Of a stretch of DNA of 64,000 nt, positions 25,832-40,878 are shown piece after piece. Under the pieces are notes generated by a model that searched no databases, had not been told where the DNA came from, and saw nothing but the letters and a program-made list of their open reading frames with translations. The stretch lies in assembly GCA_963669175.1 (NCBI GenBank), contig OY769902.1:320001-384000 (forward strand), given 5' to 3'. The DNA is from a bacterium. GTDB taxonomy: Bacteria > Electryoneota > Electryoneia > Electryoneales > Electryoneaceae. The position numbers and the translations under genes were made by a program. Numbering within the stretch: the first letter of the stretch is position 1; every line of letters begins with the position of its first letter.

Positions 25832-27859
25832 ATGACACGGAAAACGGGACGATCCATCTTACCGGCTTTGATTCAGACCCATCCCGCCTGGGTTCTCTTC
25901 GGGATTGCTTTGTTGCTCCGCATCGTCCAGCTCGTTTTCGTATATCGCCAACCCGGTTTCGATCTTCCGATTGTTGATGAAGTCCATTTTGACATCATGG
26001 CCCGCAACCTCGCGGACGGCACTACGATGCATGACGGTCCCTTCTTCCGTCCGCCGCTCTGGTCCATCCTGCTTGCCGGCCCCTACAAACTATTTGGTCA
26101 GCATTTCTTTCTGGCGAGGTTCCTGAACACCATTCTTGGTTCGCTTGCGGTAACGGCTTCCTTTCGCCTTGGCAAACGTCTGTTTCATCAGCGTGTCGCC
26201 TTTACCGGTGCATTGATCTTTGCCTGCCAGGGGTTCTTCATCCATAACAGCACAACCGGGCTGGCTTCCACCCTGCTGGTCTATCTCAGCCTGGAAGCGT
26301 TGCAGGTTACGTTGTATGCTCGCAATCAAAATCGCCTTCGATACTGGCTTATTGCCGGACTACTGTGGGGACTTGCTGCCATAGCCAAACCGGTCGTGCT
26401 GGTGCCGGTGGTTGTCATTCTCTGTGATACCTTGTTCCGTAAAACAGCAACCGCCGGGTATCGTCAAAAAACGGCCGCGCTGTTTGTGCTTGGGCTGTTG
26501 TTGCCCATTATGCCTGTGACCCTGCGAAACTCGATTTCCGGCGATGCCGTCCTGGTATCTTCCAATGGCGGAATAAATTTGTATATGGGCAACAACGAAC
26601 AGGCGAATGGCGTCATCGTGTTTCATCCTGTCCTTGGCGTGGGCTGGACCGAGACCAATGCGCACTCGTGGGCGGAATCGGAAACCGGATACATGATGAG
26701 TCCGTCCGAAGCTTCATCGTGGTACACACAACAGGCGGTGCAGTTCTGGTTCTATCAGCCCAAACGTGCCTTCAAGCTGATACTGGATAAAGCCTATTAC
26801 ACATTCTCCGGGTTGATCTTCACCAACAATGGGAATCTCGGCTTTTACGCAAAGAGCAATCTTCTTTTACGGTCACTGCTTCCCCTGGGTTGGGGCGCTG
26901 TTTTCCCATTCGCATTGGTCGGCATGGTTCTCGCCTTCCGCAGGTCCGGCAATCATCGCTTGACGATGCTGGTAGCTTTCAGTTACCTGGGAATCTGTAT
27001 TCTCTTTTTTGTGCTGGCCCGTTTCCGGCTTCCAGCGGAAGGTATCCTGGTTCATTTCGCGGCATACACCGGGTGGTTCCTGCTGGGGCGCGAAGAAGTA
27101 ACTCAACAGGCTTCCGGAAAAATTCGCCTGCTGATATCGCTGGTTGTTGTTCTCCTGGCTTTGCCGGTGAATATGAACCTGAAGGGGATGAGCCGTTCCA
27201 TTGATTATGCTCACAGTTATTACCTGAATGGTCAGCTCCTGGCTCGTGAACACCGTTACTCGGAAGCGGCCCAGGCATTTCGTGACGCTATCGCACTGAA
27301 TAAGCGTATCCCACTCAGCTACCTGTATCTCGGGCAGGTTATGATGAAAATGGACAGCACAGAGCAGGCCATAAATTATTTCAAGCATGAAATCGCCACC
27401 TTGCCGAAAACCCAGTATTTCTCTGACCTGGTACTAAATGCTCAAGCCAATCTTGGACGCGCGTATATGAAGGTCGGCGATAAAGCGGAAGCGGAGCGAA
27501 CTTTCCGGGAGGCGCGTCAAATCTATGGTGGTGATCCCGGGGTAAATAAATACCTTACCAGTCTCATACTGGAGCGTACACGTGAAAAGCTAGTGCAAGA
27601 CGACTGGAACACAGCGCTTGAGAACCTTGAAGAAGCTGCCACTATCAACCCAAATGAACCGGCGCTTGCGTTTGCTTTTGCGGTAGCACGGTTCCATACC
27701 GGAAGCCCTGAGCACGCGAACCACATTATGGCTATCATCCTGAAGCATCACCCGGATTACTCGCCAGCTCAACGATGGCGGGATCAGGAGTGGCGCCCCG
27801 ACAGCCATGATATCCAGGAGCTGTTGCTCCCCTTCCTGGATGATGGCGAAAAAAAGTGA
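25832..27859 (+). CDS. GT-C (PMT/ArnT-like) membrane glycosyltransferase with C-terminal TPRs
   Basis: PIVDEVHF, FFRPPL, SSNGGINLYMGNN, ARFRLP; multi-TM N-terminal two-thirds; TPR tail. Confidence 0.82.
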   Translation: MTRKTGRSILPALIQTHPAWVLFGIALLLRIVQLVFVYRQPGFDLPIVDEVHFDIMARNLADGTTMHDGPFFRPPLWSILLAGPYKLFGQHFFLARFLNTILGSLAVTASFRLGKRLFHQRVAFTGALIFACQGFFIHNSTTGLASTLLVYLSLEALQVTLYARNQNRLRYWLIAGLLWGLAAIAKPVVLVPVVVILCDTLFRKTATAGYRQKTAALFVLGLLLPIMPVTLRNSISGDAVLVSSNGGINLYMGNNEQANGVIVFHPVLGVGWTETNAHSWAESETGYMMSPSEASSWYTQQAVQFWFYQPKRAFKLILDKAYYTFSGLIFTNNGNLGFYAKSNLLLRSLLPLGWGAVFPFALVGMVLAFRRSGNHRLTMLVAFSYLGICILFFVLARFRLPAEGILVHFAAYTGWFLLGREEVTQQASGKIRLLISLVVVLLALPVNMNLKGMSRSIDYAHSYYLNGQLLAREHRYSEAAQAFRDAIALNKRIPLSYLYLGQVMMKMDSTEQAINYFKHEIATLPKTQYFSDLVLNAQANLGRAYMKVGDKAEAERTFREARQIYGGDPGVNKYLTSLILERTREKLVQDDWNTALENLEEAATINPNEPALAFAFAVARFHTGSPEHANHIMAIILKHHPDYSPAQRWRDQEWRPDSHDIQELLLPFLDDGEKK

Positions 27860-27955
27860 AAACTTGCGGATCAGGATTGTGCAGCCAGCTTTACCACACG
27901 TAGTTTCCTTTTTTCCAGAGTCGGAATTCTTAAACAGTTAAACCGGGAGGCAGCC

Positions 27956-29995
27956 ATGATCAAACGGCTACTGATGGGTACCCTGGCAGTGGGACTGCTT
28001 GCAGGATCGCTTTACGCATTTCCGAGGAAAATCCTCATTGAAGAATTCAACGGGCATGGCTGAGGCAGTTGCAATCCAGCATCGGTGATGCTGCACGATT
28101 TTGTAACGAATGAGGATTATGCCGATCATGTCACGACCGTCGTTTACCATGCCTACTCTGACCCCTGGTACAACATTAACGGCGATGATCATGATACCCG
28201 CTTCCAGTATTATAGTGTAACCGGGATTCCTTCGGTTCGACTTGACGGTATCCTCGGTAACTACCTGCTGAGCGCTTCAGACCTGACAACCCCTTACGGA
28301 CAACGCTACAATGTGGAGAGTCCACTTTCCATTAGCATCATGTCCATCAACAATGAAGATGAGATTAATGTAACCGCTCTGGTCACCAGTGGAGACGAAG
28401 AAGTACCTGCCAACCTGAAGATCCGAATGGCGCTGGTCAGCCTGTTTTACGACAACTTCACCGGCAACAACGGGCAGTCTGAATGGCATTGGGACATGCT
28501 GGACATGGCGCCCGATGCGGCAGGCCAGGACTTTGAAATCGGCCTGAACGAGACGGTTGAGTATTCCGCCACTTTCCCCTGGCCATTCACCCTGCAACAG
28601 GATGAGGTCGCTGAGGATAACGCCAAGATTGTGGTCTGGGTGCAGAACGATACCAACCACGAAGTGCTTCAGTCTGAATGGGCTGAGATTGGCGGTGGGT
28701 ACATGTTTGAAGCTGAACCCGGCCTGACCGAGAAACTGGTTGCGCCAGGGAGTGAAGCCGAGTTTTCCTTCGACATCACCAACACCGGTATGATGGAAGA
28801 TACTTACGATATCGCTATCACTTCCGGCCTGCTCGAGGATTGGTCCTATACTTACACAACTCCCGATGGCGAACAGAACGCTCCCGCCAGCATGACCCTC
28901 GCACCGGAAGCGACCTTTACGAGCACGGTTACCCTGTCCACAGCAGCCAATATACCGGCGTCTCAAGGCTCCATTACCATCACCATCACCTCGCAAAATA
29001 GCCCATTTATAAGTTGCGAGATGACATTTTACGCCATGGCCAACGGGCAGATCCTGGTGTTGAACGGGGACACCGAAGGACGCTATTCAGAGTACTACAC
29101 CAACGCCCTTCATGAAGTCACCCTGATTGAGGAGCTGAATGAAGATCTGAACTATTCGGTCTGGACTGCTGCCGAGCATCCTTTCCACGCTGGCGACCTG
29201 GACGAGGCAACGCCGGAACTGGTGATCTGGTACGTGGGCGGTGAGGGCAACATCACGGACGCTGATGAAACCGGCCTGATGAGTTACCTGGATGACGGCG
29301 GTTCGTTGTGGATCACAGGTTCATCAGCAGCCGTAGCCATGGACGGTGGCGACCTTATAGGGTATATGGGCGCCAGCTTCCAAGATCATTACTCCCGCGG
29401 TTATAACGTACATGGCGAAGAAGGCGATCTCTATTTTGACGGGTTGGAAACACCGATCATGGAAGGTGATGGCGCGGATAACCGAGGCGTCCCCAGCGCC
29501 CTGTACGCGACCGATGACGGCACAGTCTGCCTGATGTATTCAACAATCCGTGTCGCCGGGATTCGTCGCAGCGCCGATACATACAACACCCTGCTGTTCG
29601 GCTTCCCCTTCGAGGCTATCGCGTCACAGGAAGCCCGGACGACCTGTATGCTGGATGCGCTGCATTTCCTGATCGACTTTAACAATTTCCACGGCATCAC
29701 AGACACACCGGATCTGCTGCCGTCAGCTTTTAGCCTGCAACAGAACTACCCGAACCCGTTCAACCCGGAAACGGAGATCCGGTTCACGTTGCCTGAACGT
29801 GCGATGGTTCACCTCGCAGTCTTCGATATTACGGGGCGGGAAGTTGCCAGGTTGACAAATCGTCATTTCGAAGCGGGTCAACATTCTCTGCACTGGAACG
29901 CTGCCGACCAGGCCAGCGGTGTCTATTTCCTGCGCATGACTGCCATCGGAAACACACCGTTTGAGGCAACCAGGAAGATGGTGCTGGTGAAGTAA
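27956..29995 (+). CDS. Candidate secreted selenoprotein: Omp28/thioredoxin-like UxxC domain, Ig-like and alpha/beta domains, C-terminal sorting-type domain (679 aa with UGA readthrough)
   Basis: GGGAGG RBS, ATG 27956, MIKRLLMGTLAVGLLAGSLYA-FPRKILIEEFNGHG*GSCNP; TGA at 28061-28063 is in frame with the 28085..29995 ORF. Confidence 0.85.
28077..28093 (+). promoter_or_regulatory. SECIS-like hairpin
   Basis: CAGCATC-GGT-GATGCTG; 20 nt separate the in-frame TGA from the G-initial loop. Confidence 0.7.
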
Positions 29996-30234
29996 GGCTG
30001 TATAGATAATACTGGTGAAACACTATACTGCAACGGGACTGTCCCTTGGGATGGTCCCGTTGTTATAACAGGTTTTTACGGCCATACGTATGCGTCATTG
30101 TTGACATGGCGAGCAGCAAAACAACAAATATTTCAGAATTCCTTAAAAGGTTTGTCAGATATACTTTACTTACAACTCCCCCTGGTGTACATTGGAAAAA
30201 AATTCTACCATCAAGAAACCGTATGGAGTACAAA

Positions 30235-32376
30235 ATGCGAAAAACTCATATCGCTATATGTTTTGTAATCCTCTTTGGAAGTGTCGCTTTCTCCCAGGAG
30301 CAGGATACACTTTGGTCTCAAATCTGGGGAGTAGGGTTCTGCGATCATGCTAATGATGTTGACCAGACAATGGATGGAGGATTTATTGCATTTGGAAGCC
30401 ATTATAATGATCGGGAGGGTGTAATCGTCAAGTTTGACAGCCTTGGCGAAGCGGAATGGTATCAGGATTTTGTTGCCGGCACCGGTAACTGTGGCTTTCA
30501 ATCCGGTCAACAAACTTCCGACGGAGGCTTTATTTGTGCAGGAAGCATCTACGATCAAATATTATATTACGATTTCTGGCTGGTAAAAACAGATGATGAA
30601 GGCGTTCTGGAATGGGAACAAACTTATGGCACTAACACCAGTGAAGAGTGCAATTGTGTACAACAAACCACTGATGGTGGTTATGTCCTTGCGGGATACG
30701 TGGGATCGGCACATTCAGATTGGTGGCTGATAAAAACAGATGAAGACGGCGAAATAGAATGGGACCAGACATATGGAAACGAATCCACTGATAAGTCTTA
30801 TAGCGTCAAACAAACGAATGATGGCGGTTACATTCTTACAGGTTTTTCCTATATCACCGACGAATCTAATTGTAATCTCTGGCTGTTAAAAACGGATTCC
30901 GAGGGAAATCAGGAGTGGTTGAGTGAATTCGGGATATCTGCTGATGATGCTAATGATTATGGATACGATGTTATTCAGACCTCTGATGGAGGATATGCGG
31001 TTATTGGTGAAACCCGATCGTATGGCGCAGGCGGTAGTGATGCCTGGTTAATTAAAACAGATGAAGACGGCTTAGAGGAATGGAATCAGACATATGGTGG
31101 TGAAAGGACCGAAAGTGGGAATTCACTTCAACAAACATTAGATGGTGGTTTCATCATTGCCGGAGATGGGATGCCAGCCGATATCGGTGGCAGCGATTTC
31201 TGCGTCATTAAAACCAATATGGAAGGTGAAGAAGAATGGAGTCATTCTTACGGCGCAGGGCAAATTGAACGAGCACTTAGTGTTGAGCTTACCACCGATG
31301 GCGGATTTATCGTTTCCGGTTTTACCAATAGTTTTGGAGTTAATGGAAGTGATATGTGGTTGTTTCGTTATGAAGGATTGCTTTCGCCCACTCCTTTTCA
31401 TTTGCTGACTCCAACAGATGCTGAATGGCTAACGATTAATGATACTACTGAAATTCCGTTTTCCTGGGGAATTTCCTCAAGCCTGAACCCTGATGAAACT
31501 GTTGCATTTGATCTCCATATTCATGCTGGATATGGCGACATCGACAGTCTGACTTCTATCAGGGATATCGTGGAAACTGATACAGCCCTTACGGTGCAAC
31601 AGCTTCTTGGTTTGGAATACTGGGATTCGGCTATTAATTGTTCATGGTATGTTGAAGCGATTGCCGGGATGGATACAACTTCATCCATGGATACGTTCAG
31701 TTTCCGCATCATGCCTCACATTTTTGATTATCCGCCATCCGAGTTTACGCTGCTTTCCCCTGAAGATGACGCTTTGATTGAGGTTGACGAATCATTAGTC
31801 ATCGATTTCGCATGGCAGTCCTCAACAGATCCCAATCCGGACGACACAGTTGTATACGATGTCATCATTCACGGTTTAGGCAGTGGTATTGACAGCACAA
31901 CTTACCTTGAGGCTCAAACTGATACTACTCTATCACTTACGGTTACTGAACTCATGGGATTAATCAACTGGGAAACCACACTTGCTTTTGACTGGTCAGT
32001 TACGGCTGTTTCCAGTGAACTTTCGACCGCATGTACAGAAGATTTCACATTTAACATTGAAGCGCATAGTACTGTTGGTAACAATGCAACGGATGAACTG
32101 CCAACAGAGTTTGCAATAACCTCTATCTTCCCGAATCCGTTCAACCCGGAGACGGAAATCCGGTTCTCGCTGCCCGAACGTGCCACGGTTCACCTGGCGG
32201 TTTTCGATATCACCGGACGTGAAGTGGCAAACCTGGCAAACCAGCCTTTCCAAGCCGGACAACATGCCCTGCACTGGAATGCTGCAGACCAGGCCAGCGG
32301 TGTGTACTTCCTGCGTATGACTGCGACCGGGAATACACCGTTTGAAGCGACACGAAAGATGATGCTGGTGAAGTAG
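30235..32376 (+). CDS. Secreted beta-propeller repeat protein (QTxDGG...WLxKTD repeats) with C-terminal sorting-type domain
   Basis: Start MRKTHIA after GGAG; about 7 repeats of QQTxDGGY...WLIKTDEDG..EWxQTYG; two Ig-like linker domains; PNPFN tail. Confidence 0.85.
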   Translation: MRKTHIAICFVILFGSVAFSQEQDTLWSQIWGVGFCDHANDVDQTMDGGFIAFGSHYNDREGVIVKFDSLGEAEWYQDFVAGTGNCGFQSGQQTSDGGFICAGSIYDQILYYDFWLVKTDDEGVLEWEQTYGTNTSEECNCVQQTTDGGYVLAGYVGSAHSDWWLIKTDEDGEIEWDQTYGNESTDKSYSVKQTNDGGYILTGFSYITDESNCNLWLLKTDSEGNQEWLSEFGISADDANDYGYDVIQTSDGGYAVIGETRSYGAGGSDAWLIKTDEDGLEEWNQTYGGERTESGNSLQQTLDGGFIIAGDGMPADIGGSDFCVIKTNMEGEEEWSHSYGAGQIERALSVELTTDGGFIVSGFTNSFGVNGSDMWLFRYEGLLSPTPFHLLTPTDAEWLTINDTTEIPFSWGISSSLNPDETVAFDLHIHAGYGDIDSLTSIRDIVETDTALTVQQLLGLEYWDSAINCSWYVEAIAGMDTTSSMDTFSFRIMPHIFDYPPSEFTLLSPEDDALIEVDESLVIDFAWQSSTDPNPDDTVVYDVIIHGLGSGIDSTTYLEAQTDTTLSLTVTELMGLINWETTLAFDWSVTAVSSELSTACTEDFTFNIEAHSTVGNNATDELPTEFAITSIFPNPFNPETEIRFSLPERATVHLAVFDITGREVANLANQPFQAGQHALHWNAADQASGVYFLRMTATGNTPFEATRKMMLVK

Positions 32377-36391: not shown

Positions 36392-36494
36392 TTACCGGGG
36401 ACTTTTGCGCCGAGGCGTATCTTGAGGTATTACACCACATTCACAACAAGAGAAAAAGGCCACGATTTTCACCGTAACCCTTTGGAAATACTAG

Positions 36495-36579
36495 CGGAGG
36501 ATGAGGGACTCGAACCCCCAAGGGACGTCAGTCCCGGCGGTTTTCAAGACCGCTGCCTTACCAATTAGGCTAATCCTCC
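36495..36579 (-). tRNA. tRNA-Ser (anticodon TGA), CCA not encoded
   Basis: Acceptor GGAGGAT/ATCCTCC-G; anticodon arm GCGGT-CTTGAAA-ACCGC; long variable arm GGGAC-TGAC-GTCCC; GGTTCGAGTCC. Confidence 0.95.
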
Positions 36580-38814: not shown

Positions 38815-40878
38815 CTATTTCATAAGGATCATCTTTCTGGTCGCCTCATGCGTGACCTTGTCTCCAAGGGCAGTCAGACGATAGAAATAGACGCCGCTGG
38901 CCAGGTGATCCGCCTGCCAGGCGATATTATGAGCGCCTGCAGCGTATTGACCTTCGGCCAGACGCGCCACTTCACGTCCCAGCATGTCAAACACAGTCAA
39001 CTCCACCATCGCCGCTTCCGGAAGACTGAACCGGATGTCTGTGGACGGGTTGAACGGGTTGGGGTGATTCTGCGCCAAGGCGAATTCCTGCGGCAGAATG
39101 TCGCTGCCAAAGCCATCAATAACACCGTTGTATTGGAAATCAGCCATCCAGACCATGATGTTCAGCATCAGGGCCGCACGATGTTCCTGGGTATCAATGG
39201 TTTCAAATGGGAATCCGAACAGCAGAGTACGGTAATTATCAGACATATTCCGTACCGCTGCCCCTAACTGGGTGCCGCCAAACTTGATACAGGTCGTACC
39301 TGCGTTACCCGCAACACTTACCGGGTTACGGTAGTTGTTGGCGCCATCACCACCATACAGGTTGACTTCAATGCCGTCCCCGATCGGGTCATCATCATAC
39401 CCCTGAATGGTGTAGAAATCACCGGCAGAACCAACATAAGTCCCCATCAGTGTTTCAAGCGTTGTACCCGCAACATAGTTCGGGGCATCCACACCGCTGA
39501 GGAACAAGTTGCCACCATTGTTGACATAAGCAGTCAAGCCAGCGATTTCAGACTCGGTCAACACACCAAAGTCGCCAAGGTACCACATCACCAGGCGCGG
39601 ATTTGCACTGGTCAGTTCTTCAAAAACCAGTGGGTAGCTCTCGTTCGGCCATACACCGAAAGTGACCTGCTCGTCCGAGTCCGTTTCGCCCAGCGCGTTT
39701 ACGGCATTGATGGCATCTGCGAAATAGTTGCCATACGCCCCGTTCGGATCACTGTTCACCACCAGCATTTCACCGGACGATTGCAGGAAGAAAGTAAACT
39801 CGGTAAAGTTGGCCGGTTGGTTCTGTGACGTGATCAGGAAGGTCAGCTCGAACGATTCGCCTGGGGTCGCACTTGGTGTCAGCGAGATAACCGCATCATG
39901 ATGCGAATCTGAAACCAGGGAAAGAGTAGCATCATCGGAATGATCGCCATCCGGGAGAGAATAGCTGAACCCCCAACCTTCCGGCACATCTTCTGCGTTG
40001 ACATCTATATCATAGCTGTCATCAGCAAGTCCGAGGTTGAAAATTCCCACGTCAAAGGTCGCAGTGACTTCTGTCGAACCCAGGTGATAAAACTCTTCGC
40101 AAGCGCCAAAGAACAGATAATCCGGGTACCCTTCCGGTGTTAGGCTACTGGAACGCGCCTGGAGGACTTCGCCGGTTTCATCGTCCTGTACAAACACCAC
40201 CAGCGTAACATCATCTTCACCCAGCTCCTCGCCTAACAGATCAACCGGCCAGTTGAATGTCGCTGAGTATTCTGCCGTTGTATAGGCGTCACAGGTGAAA
40301 TCCTGGCCATTGCCGTTGGGCCGCATCGCCAGCAGGTCATGTTCGAATTCGTCCTGCTCGTTGGATGCATCCCACTCCGCATAATTGGAAGTCAAGGCAA
40401 AATGGATGGTATGACCGCTTTCAATAGCAGAGCCTGCATTGAGGACTGTTGCTGTCACATCCATCGTGCTTTCTTCCATCTCAACGGCAAGGAAGATTTC
40501 TATGGGCGTTGGAATGTTCCTGCGTTCCGTTACAGGAGAAGAAATGTTAGCGCTGTTGATCGGCCAGATATCATACAGGCCGTCAATCAAGAGAGCTGGA
40601 ATGCCGGTTACACCGTAAAAATTCGCACGGGTATTTGCTGCCGATCCGGACGCCTGGTACCAGGGATCACCTGCCCCATTGTCATTCAGATGGTAGACAA
40701 TGGTAGCAACCACATCAGGATTGTTTTCAGCATAAGTCATCACCGCCTGCCCCGCAGACGGACAAGTGGGTCACCACTCTGTCTGGAATTCTTCCAGTAG
40801 AACTCGACGCTGGAAAGCATGGGACGAGCCTGCCAGCAGGCCGATAAGTACTACACCGGTGAACAAACGTCGAAACAT
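38815..40878 (-). CDS. Candidate secreted selenoprotein, paralog of 27956..29995 (687 aa with UGA readthrough)
   Basis: GAGGGAGG RBS, ATG 40878, MFRRLFTGVVLIGLLAGSSHA-FQRRVLLEEFQTEW*PTCP; TGA at 40773-40771 is in frame with the 38815..40743 ORF. Confidence 0.87.
40743..40761 (-). promoter_or_regulatory. SECIS-like hairpin
   Basis: Minus strand CCGTCTGC-GGG-GCAGGCGG (8 bp, one G-U pair); 17 nt separate the TGA from the loop. Confidence 0.7.

Follow-up and report, generated by a model that had tools for sequence, protein, structure and literature searches.

In a stretch of 64,000 nucleotides from a bacterium of the phylum Electryoneota (GenBank assembly GCA_963669175.1, contig OY769902.1, positions 320,001 to 384,000 of the forward strand; hereafter the window), the gene at 27956-29995 very probably encodes an exported selenoprotein of 679 residues with a selenocysteine (Sec, U) redox site. 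The analysis itself establishes the codon and its conservation, the machinery that serves it, a covarying hairpin, the protein fold and the signals for sorting, from which this reading of the sequence is drawn. A wider claim is offered tentatively, at less than even confidence: that the gene belongs to a family that would be the first of its kind to be recognised, one of cell-surface selenoproteins exported by type IX secretion, in a phylum-wide expansion of selenol/thiol oxidoreductases resembling HBP35, with Sec and Cys paralogues switched by selenium supply and with Sec forms truncated in public data. The features at the 5' end of the gene, on which much of the argument turns, are as follows.

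27945-27950, plus strand: Shine-Dalgarno-like GGGAGG, 5 nt ahead of the start codon, read from the sequence
27956-29995, plus strand: full selenoprotein coding sequence of 679 codons and a stop, interrupted by a single in-frame TGA, translated with TGA as U
27956-28018, plus strand: signal peptide of 21 residues, MIKRLLMGTLAVGLLAGSLYA, judged by eye
28061-28063, plus strand: predicted selenocysteine codon TGA, codon 36, aligned with Cys in paralogues and orthologues
28070-28072, plus strand: TGC, coding for the resolving Cys (the second position of the redox pair in U-x-x-C); its column, C18, is invariant in alignment A1
28077-28093, plus strand: predicted selenocysteine insertion sequence (SECIS) hairpin with a 7-bp stem and a GGU loop at 28084-28086, from folding, the geometry of selD and covariation in relatives

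Translated with TGA as U, the frame that starts at ATG 27956 remains open on the plus strand for 679 codons plus a stop at 29993-29995, and the sole in-frame stop inside it is the TGA at 28061-28063. The list of open reading frames covers only the part from 28085 to 29995, beginning at a GTG (28085) in the same frame as ATG 27956, and an N-terminal signal peptide for the Sec export pathway appears, by eye, only if the frame is extended through the TGA. Judged in the same way, MIKRLLMGTLAVGLLAGSLYA has a positive n-region, a hydrophobic core and a cleavage site between LYA and F; it is followed by FPRKILIEEFNGHG, the TGA and then GSC. An earlier reading of this DNA, made from the letters without database searches (the sequence-only reading), had proposed the strong ribosome-binding site GGGAGG, ATG 27956 and a signal peptide of 21 residues, and its coordinates are all correct, the peptide being a judgement by eye; its placement of the TGA at codon 36, ahead of GSC and in frame with the listed reading frame, is likewise borne out by the sequence. 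Every Sec- or Cys-form homologue aligned has an in-frame upstream Met followed by a hydrophobic stretch. The earlier reading had also named reads with TGC or TGT at 28061 as evidence that would speak against it, and contigs of four runs instead cover TGA 28061-28063 with zero differing letters, the four runs representing three samples of one study and two of them possibly being the assembly's own source. The gene upstream ends at TGA 27857-27859, so that TGA is an ordinary stop elsewhere; a reassignment of TGA of the code 4/25 type was rejected because that gene stops at TGA and because the site studied here alternates with Cys codons.

In the host genome (5.45 Mb) there are five paralogues of the N-terminal domain, the query included, three with one TGA (EEFNGHG-U-GSC, ENFSADW-U-PYC and EEFQTEW-U-PTC) and two with none (EDFTSTT-C-SPC and EDFTNIN-C-SPC); the TGA aligns with the first Cys of the CxxC, and all five have an upstream signal peptide. 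Homologues are present in 72 of the 79 genomes of the phylum, host included. The phylum scan listed 150 matches, with four further matches unlisted, and by hand count exactly one TGA occurs in 50 of the 150 listed and none in the remaining 100. All TGA-bearing loci, from 28 genomes, were fetched, and the TGA lies at one shared column in 50 of 50. The motif is U-x-x-C in 48 of these, the exceptions being L057 (C-U-G-G-S), where Cys and Sec are adjacent and no Cys follows, and L080 (U-G-P-N-C), in which the spacing is three residues. Each of the 48 U-x-x-C domains contains a single stop over 219 codons (125 in L088, which reaches a contig end), and the upstream FPRxVLxExF and signal peptide are kept in frame in all homologues examined, Sec and Cys forms together. 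The 19 Cys-form rows examined all read C-x-x-C and, one being a duplicate, stand for 18 distinct loci. L036 departs from both forms, with Asp in place of Sec or Cys at the first position (D-D-A-C), and tblastn returned no match for one other fetched locus, L091. The claim that the TGA occupies the first Cys position of the motif is therefore upheld by alignment with Cys-form paralogues and orthologues, and the search for homologues with Cys or UGA at position 36, which the same reading had suggested as a check, gave these 50 TGA forms and 18 CxxC loci. Such alternation of TGA with Cys is the classical signature of a Sec/Cys family and therefore effectively excludes a pseudogene or a sequencing error.

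A maximum-likelihood tree was built from 66 rows, 48 of them Sec and 18 Cys, leaving out the three loci with odd motifs, the duplicate and about 80 unfetched Cys-form matches. The Sec/Cys label needs at least nine changes on this tree, seven of which are forced by well-supported branches, and the query falls in an all-Sec clade of 13 (Shimodaira-Hasegawa-like approximate likelihood-ratio test, SH-aLRT, 98). Sec forms occur in 28 of the 79 genomes of the phylum, with up to four per genome (hand count). Their spread by family is uneven, again by hand count: 10 of 16 genomes in f1, 6 of 9 in f3, 4 of 4 in f4 and 6 of 6 in f6, as against 0 of 16 in f2 and 1 of 24 in f7, despite the presence of SelA in nearly all genomes of the phylum. 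The host also carries a Sec and a Cys paralogue in tandem, at genome positions 1176636 (Sec) and 1179617 (Cys), the last 40 residues of which are identical. The Cys member of the pair (L026, C1:1179617) has a perfect 9-bp hairpin right after its TGT, at about position 1567 of the locus, with a UUG loop from nt 20; this may be a fossil SECIS left by a change from Sec to Cys. One could speculate that the coexistence of Sec- and Cys-form paralogues provides a selenium-dependent backup. With at least nine Sec/Cys switches and paralogues of both kinds in tandem, the family offers a useful case for the study of Sec-Cys exchange.

A second hidden Sec-form paralogue lies within the window itself, at 38815-40878 on the minus strand (687 codons, TGA at 40773-40771). 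[quoted passage not shown]

The genome is equipped to decode such codons. It contains selA (452.6 bits), selB (347.8 bits against a cut-off of 242), selC as a tRNA-Sec (64.7 bits; anticodon TCA by ARAGORN; genome position 3241757) and selD (355.6 bits), so that the check for all four genes proposed by the sequence-only reading returned every one of them; SelA was found in 74 of the 79 genomes of the phylum. The organism can read UGA as Sec. Its selD (genome C1:4678447, L017) carries one in-frame TGA and is a selenoprotein itself (FSRCVG-U-ASK); an 8-bp hairpin comes after the TGA, its GGU loop beginning at nt 24 counted from the U of UGA. Equal in loop and in distance, the selD hairpin therefore serves as an internal positive control for the hairpin at 28077-28093. 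A tRNA-Ser (anticodon TGA) at 36494-36579 of the window, minus strand, scores 46.8 bits on the Rfam tRNA-Sec model, where the threshold is 47, and is not a Sec tRNA.

The hairpin of the query pairs C28077-C28083 with G28087-G28093 in seven Watson-Crick pairs, its loop lying 20 nt past the A of the TGA, and has an energy of -8.5 kcal/mol as a bare hairpin. As given in the available text of a 2026 review (PMC13188914), the bacterial SECIS model has a loop of 3-9 nt, a stem of 4-16 bp, a G in the first two loop bases, a distance of 16-37 nt from the UGA and a minimum free energy (MFE) of -7.5 kcal/mol or below; with a 3-nt GGU loop, 7 bp, 20 nt and -8.5 kcal/mol the query hairpin fits the model in that form. 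The 7-bp GGU hairpin described by the sequence-only reading is thus confirmed, in its fit to the published model as there given, in its selD-like geometry and in the covariation of its clade. It shares with the selD element a stem of 7-8 bp and a GGU triloop from nt 24; the selD stem is unrelated in sequence, and recruitment of SelB by the query hairpin is a prediction. In the fdhF SECIS of E. coli, the bases that contact SelB, G23 and U24, lie in the loop. Perfect hairpins of at least 7 bp with loops of 3-8 nt occur at 48 of the 64,000 plus-strand positions of the window, which puts the chance of one in the 22 allowed positions at about 1.6%, or 0.6% with a G in the first two loop bases, and 13 of the 1293 TGA triplets in the window precede such a hairpin. 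The query hairpin proves little alone, and its weight comes from comparison across genes.

In that comparison, the best downstream hairpin has a mean energy of -8.27 kcal/mol in the 48 Sec forms against -4.11 in the 19 Cys rows (one-sided Mann-Whitney p = 1e-4, a value that overstates the evidence as the rows are related). For this hairpin a loop start within nt 20-24 is seen in 35 of 48 Sec forms and in 5 of 17 Cys forms, and a G opens the loop in 25 of the 48 and in 1 of the 17. Likewise, the mean MFE over 60 nt is -18.4 kcal/mol in 17 Sec forms and -13.1 in 16 non-Sec forms (Mann-Whitney p = 9e-4, the rows again being related). Among 15 sequences that share the nt-21 register, 94.2% of cells are paired and all eight pairs show double changes; that set was picked by the very feature counted, and the count was redone on the clade of 13 defined by the tree. 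There, 92.3% of cells are paired, changes on both sides occur in five of eight pairs (20 cells), and the covariation score is 0.53 against 0.20 when shuffled, a value reached by 0 of 500 shuffles, while registers slid along the alignment are at most 50% paired; two of the five measures on this clade are less extreme, being reached by 48 and 22 of 500 shuffles. One pair is particularly instructive: column 18, a synonymous site at position three of a Pro/Ser codon, changes together with column 26, the second position of a Leu/Gln/Pro/Arg codon three codons on, and the pairs seen are A-U, U-A, G-C, C-G and G-U. A scan of 27900-28200 against Rfam gave two matches only, both at chance level (E 2.2 and 2.4), with no general bacterial SECIS family among them, and a scan for promoters and terminators gave nothing above shuffle expectation.

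Beyond its putative signal peptide, the protein is built from five domains.

28019-28309, plus strand: thioredoxin-fold domain (beta-alpha-beta-alpha-beta-beta-alpha) with U36-G-S-C39, from AlphaFold, Foldseek and profile
28325-28687, plus strand: Omp28-like beta-sandwich packed on the thioredoxin domain, from the model (strands at mature residues 103-223), Pfam Omp28 and the folds 2r2c and 5y1a
28691-29041, plus strand: immunoglobulin (Ig)-like beta-sandwich, from the AlphaFold model of residues 246-600 and weak Pfam Ig-like matches
29051-29671, plus strand: alpha/beta domain with a class-I glutamine-amidotransferase-like (flavodoxin-like) fold, from the model and fold matches
29747-29992, plus strand: T9SS type A C-terminal sorting domain, from PF18962 and TIGR04183

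AlphaFold, given an alignment of 48 sequences, models the N-terminal domain with a mean predicted local distance difference test (pLDDT) of 94.7. In mature numbering the elements are a strand at 5-11, a helix at 18-29, a strand at 38-44, a helix at 49-64, strands at 72-75 and 79-82 and a helix at 87-97, followed by the beta-sandwich; the U36-x-x-C39 motif lies partly just ahead of helix 1 and partly in its first turn. Invariant columns, numbered in the same way, are E8, U/C15, C18, Y65, P71 and G169, of which P71 immediately precedes strand 3 in the model. Thioredoxins have a cis-proline just ahead of strand 3. The top Foldseek match in the PDB is 5y1a, HBP35 (E 8.6e-14, TMq 0.74), and the next are 2axo, the Omp28 domain 2r2c (E 7.5e-5) and many thioredoxins, with root-mean-square deviations of 2.3-3 A. 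By sequence, too, the family profile finds HBP35 (E 5.9e-8), with FTAEWCGYC aligned to the U36 motif. The thioredoxin-like redox domain that the sequence-only reading had recognised from its motif thus stands as a fold by AlphaFold, Foldseek and profile match.

Residues 246-600 were modelled with a pLDDT of 89.3. The alpha/beta domain in this model matches the folds 2gk3 (TMt 0.56), 2a9v (0.62) and 8rp0 (0.65); the invariant columns of alignment A4 are W180, E308, P344, P354 and N355, and with no invariant Cys or His among them a catalytic triad in this domain is unlikely. Most relatives, Sec and Cys forms alike, have 670-690 residues and the same domain layout. Others, including P0012 and P0013, have two or three tandem thioredoxin/Omp28 modules in proteins of 800-3600 residues.

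The surface-sorting C-terminal domain proposed by the earlier reading is a T9SS domain above both curated cut-offs, with 31.1 bits on PF18962 (cut-off 27) and 31 bits on TIGR04183 (cut-off 23), and the T9SS machinery is present in the genome as PorU (688.8 bits, cut-off 420) and SprA (799 bits, cut-off 200). Upstream of the gene lies one for a PMT_2/TPR glycosyltransferase, and downstream of it are two that encode T9SS cargo; no obvious redox partner is among these neighbours. In the first of the two cargo genes (30223-32376), the T9SS domain at 32130-32373 is near-identical to that at 29747-29992 while the rest of the two proteins differs, which, as a matter of sequence, suggests recent gene conversion or domain duplication.

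Public records of the gene begin too late. Its public product (P0002) has 635 residues and starts at GTG 28085, so that the expectation of the sequence-only reading that automated pipelines would truncate the gene has come true in a form that lacks the N-terminus. A profile search of a protein library found 17,499 relatives at E <=1e-3. Among the best 150, 14 have their start 2-4 residues ahead of profile positions 17-41, just past the Sec site; these include the products of the query and of its paralogue in the window. Records that start past the Sec codon therefore miss both the export signal and the redox motif, and many of them would be set right by a model built for this clade.

By analogy with the established bacterial mechanism, ribosomes would start at ATG 27956 and the hairpin at 28077-28093 would recruit SelB with Sec-tRNA(Sec), so that UGA 28061 would be read as selenocysteine and not as termination. 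Comparison and modelling show U36 as the attacking residue of a U-x-x-C in a thioredoxin fold fused to an Omp28-like sandwich. The signal peptide would take the protein through the Sec export pathway, and the C-terminal domain would probably pass it to the T9SS, which would release it at the cell surface or attach it there. On or outside the outer membrane, the selenol/thiol pair, judged by homology, would then act as a thiol-disulfide (selenenylsulfide) oxidoreductase. If so, the family would carry selenium chemistry outside the cell.

Three other explanations of the TGA have to be weighed against an exported selenoprotein. One takes it as a true stop, with the product starting at GTG 28085 (635 residues) and the upstream frame serving as a short leader or remaining untranslated. 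The gene caller's product has just this form, and 14 of the best 150 database representatives also begin just past the site; however, the 635-residue form would have a T9SS sorting domain with no signal peptide to go with it, would be missing strand 1 and the CxxC from a thioredoxin fold that is modelled with confidence, and would leave 35 upstream codons that are nevertheless kept in frame in all homologues examined, and we regard it as highly improbable. Alternatively, UGA might be read through without Sec, whether by Cys mis-charged on tRNA-Sec when selenium is scarce or by a near-cognate Trp or Cys tRNA; the site would then be a leaky stop, or a regulatory one, and no obligate Sec codon. 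That Cys works at this position, as the genome's two Cys-form paralogues show, lends this a certain plausibility, but it is very unlikely in view of the complete Sec machinery, a canonical SECIS with geometry as in selD, and a site where, apart from a single Asp in the rows examined, TGA is exchanged for Cys codons only, in the usual manner of Sec. Finally, the gene could be a pseudogene, or the TGA an assembly error for TGC or TGT, from either of which it is one base away. Against this stand the same codon at the same column in 50 loci of 28 genomes, in domains otherwise open, the compensatory changes in the hairpin and the agreement of contigs from three samples (one study, which may include the assembly source), and the idea is vanishingly improbable.

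Reading the gene as an exported selenoprotein, on the other hand, has difficulties of its own, and the following points weigh against it. The 71-nt local fold around the hairpin is no more stable than expected (z = -0.08), 92 of 200 shuffles being at least as stable; compared with 12 of its 13 clade-mates, the query hairpin is displaced downstream by 3 nt and so falls out of their register; and distant Sec-form subgroups use other hairpins, some of them weak and some with no G in the loop. Family assignment falls short of curated thresholds, at 37.1 bits against a cut-off of 200 for NF045500 and, for Pfam PF11551 (Omp28) on residues 84-245 of the full protein, 31.1 bits against a gathering score of 34.9. 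The three neighbouring genes scanned include no electron donor for a surface reductase. The surface location, the redox activity and the substrate, moreover, are proposed by homology.

Among known families, the closest is one first described from metagenomic data. The available text of the Global Ocean Sampling (GOS) paper of Zhang and Gladyshev (2008; PMC2398784) presents GOS_C as a new family of thioredoxin-like fold and no known function, represented by 74 Sec and 312 Cys sequences, and Table 1 of the 2026 review (PMC13188914), in the text available, gives NF045500 as 'Hypothetical protein GOS_C', UxxC, with one Sec. As NF045500, 'Omp28-related selenoprotein', it is also the best family-specific NCBIfam match to the N-terminal domain (E 2.3e-9), residues 24-245 aligning with profile positions 39-268. 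The two are alike, as far as those sources describe GOS_C, in being predicted bacterial selenoproteins with one Sec in the UxxC of a thioredoxin-like fold and many Cys homologues. They differ in that the last ~110 of the 377 profile positions are unmatched by the query, and in that the query has 679 residues with Ig-like, alpha/beta and T9SS sorting domains, GOS_C being compared here by profile and description. The cut-off of NF045500 is reached in none of the 79 genomes of the phylum (best score 76.9 bits), nor by any of the six matches in a profile search of near-length proteins. By score the query falls outside NF045500, yet it would work like a member. Whether the family had been described, which the sequence-only reading could not tell, thus has a divided answer: a distant family, GOS_C/NF045500, exists, and the query lies below its cut-off.

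The UGSC-containing selenoprotein NF041046, whose accession comes from the available text of the same review (PMC13188914), was rejected as a match, since it is absent from the seven NCBIfam families found at E <=1 and the relatives of the query read UPYC, UGFC and UGTC, among others; the motif U-G-S-C does not by itself suffice for membership. With the Omp28 family (PF11551, NF033782, 2r2c) the query shares a homologous beta-sandwich, and the sequence matches are weak: NF033782 scores 21.6 bits against a cut-off of 150. PF11551, below its gathering score on the full protein, does appear among the precomputed Pfam assignments of P0002, the truncated public form. It differs from that family in having a signal peptide of the signal-peptidase-I type, judged by eye, and a T9SS domain in place of a lipoprotein signal.

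In the available portions of their texts, the GOS paper (PMC2398784) does not mention 'signal peptide' or link GOS_C to T9SS or HBP35, and the review (PMC13188914) does not mention 'T9SS', 'Omp28' or 'cell surface'. In the open-access literature, subscription journals and supplements aside, no paper linking selenoproteins with T9SS, Omp28 or HBP35 was found, and a search of genome contigs with the single query protein found no relative. As those partial sources indicate, the kind of selenoprotein at issue, an Omp28/thioredoxin-like UxxC protein, is already predicted in print and curated. What appears to be new is a distinct clade of 680-residue proteins with a T9SS domain across one phylum, the link to HBP35 and the extent of truncation in public data.

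HBP35 of Porphyromonas gingivalis (5y1a) is the best structural and profile match, and the resemblance extends from the thioredoxin domain and beta-sandwich, with a CxxC aligned to U36xxC39, to the T9SS C-terminal domain; HBP35 itself sits at the cell surface. It differs from the query in having Cys in place of Sec, in its length of 344 residues with neither the Ig-like nor the alpha/beta domain, and in sequence, at ~14% identity. Hemin binding is a property of HBP35, where it was shown. According to the available text of the report on its activity (PMC2907840), recombinant HBP35 reduces insulin faster than E. coli thioredoxin, and the C48S/C51S mutant has lost this activity. The GOS_C/Omp28-related type of selenoprotein has so far lacked a functional anchor and is now tied, by fold and by profile, to HBP35 and the T9SS, a tie that gives rise to testable hypotheses on selenium redox chemistry at the cell surface.

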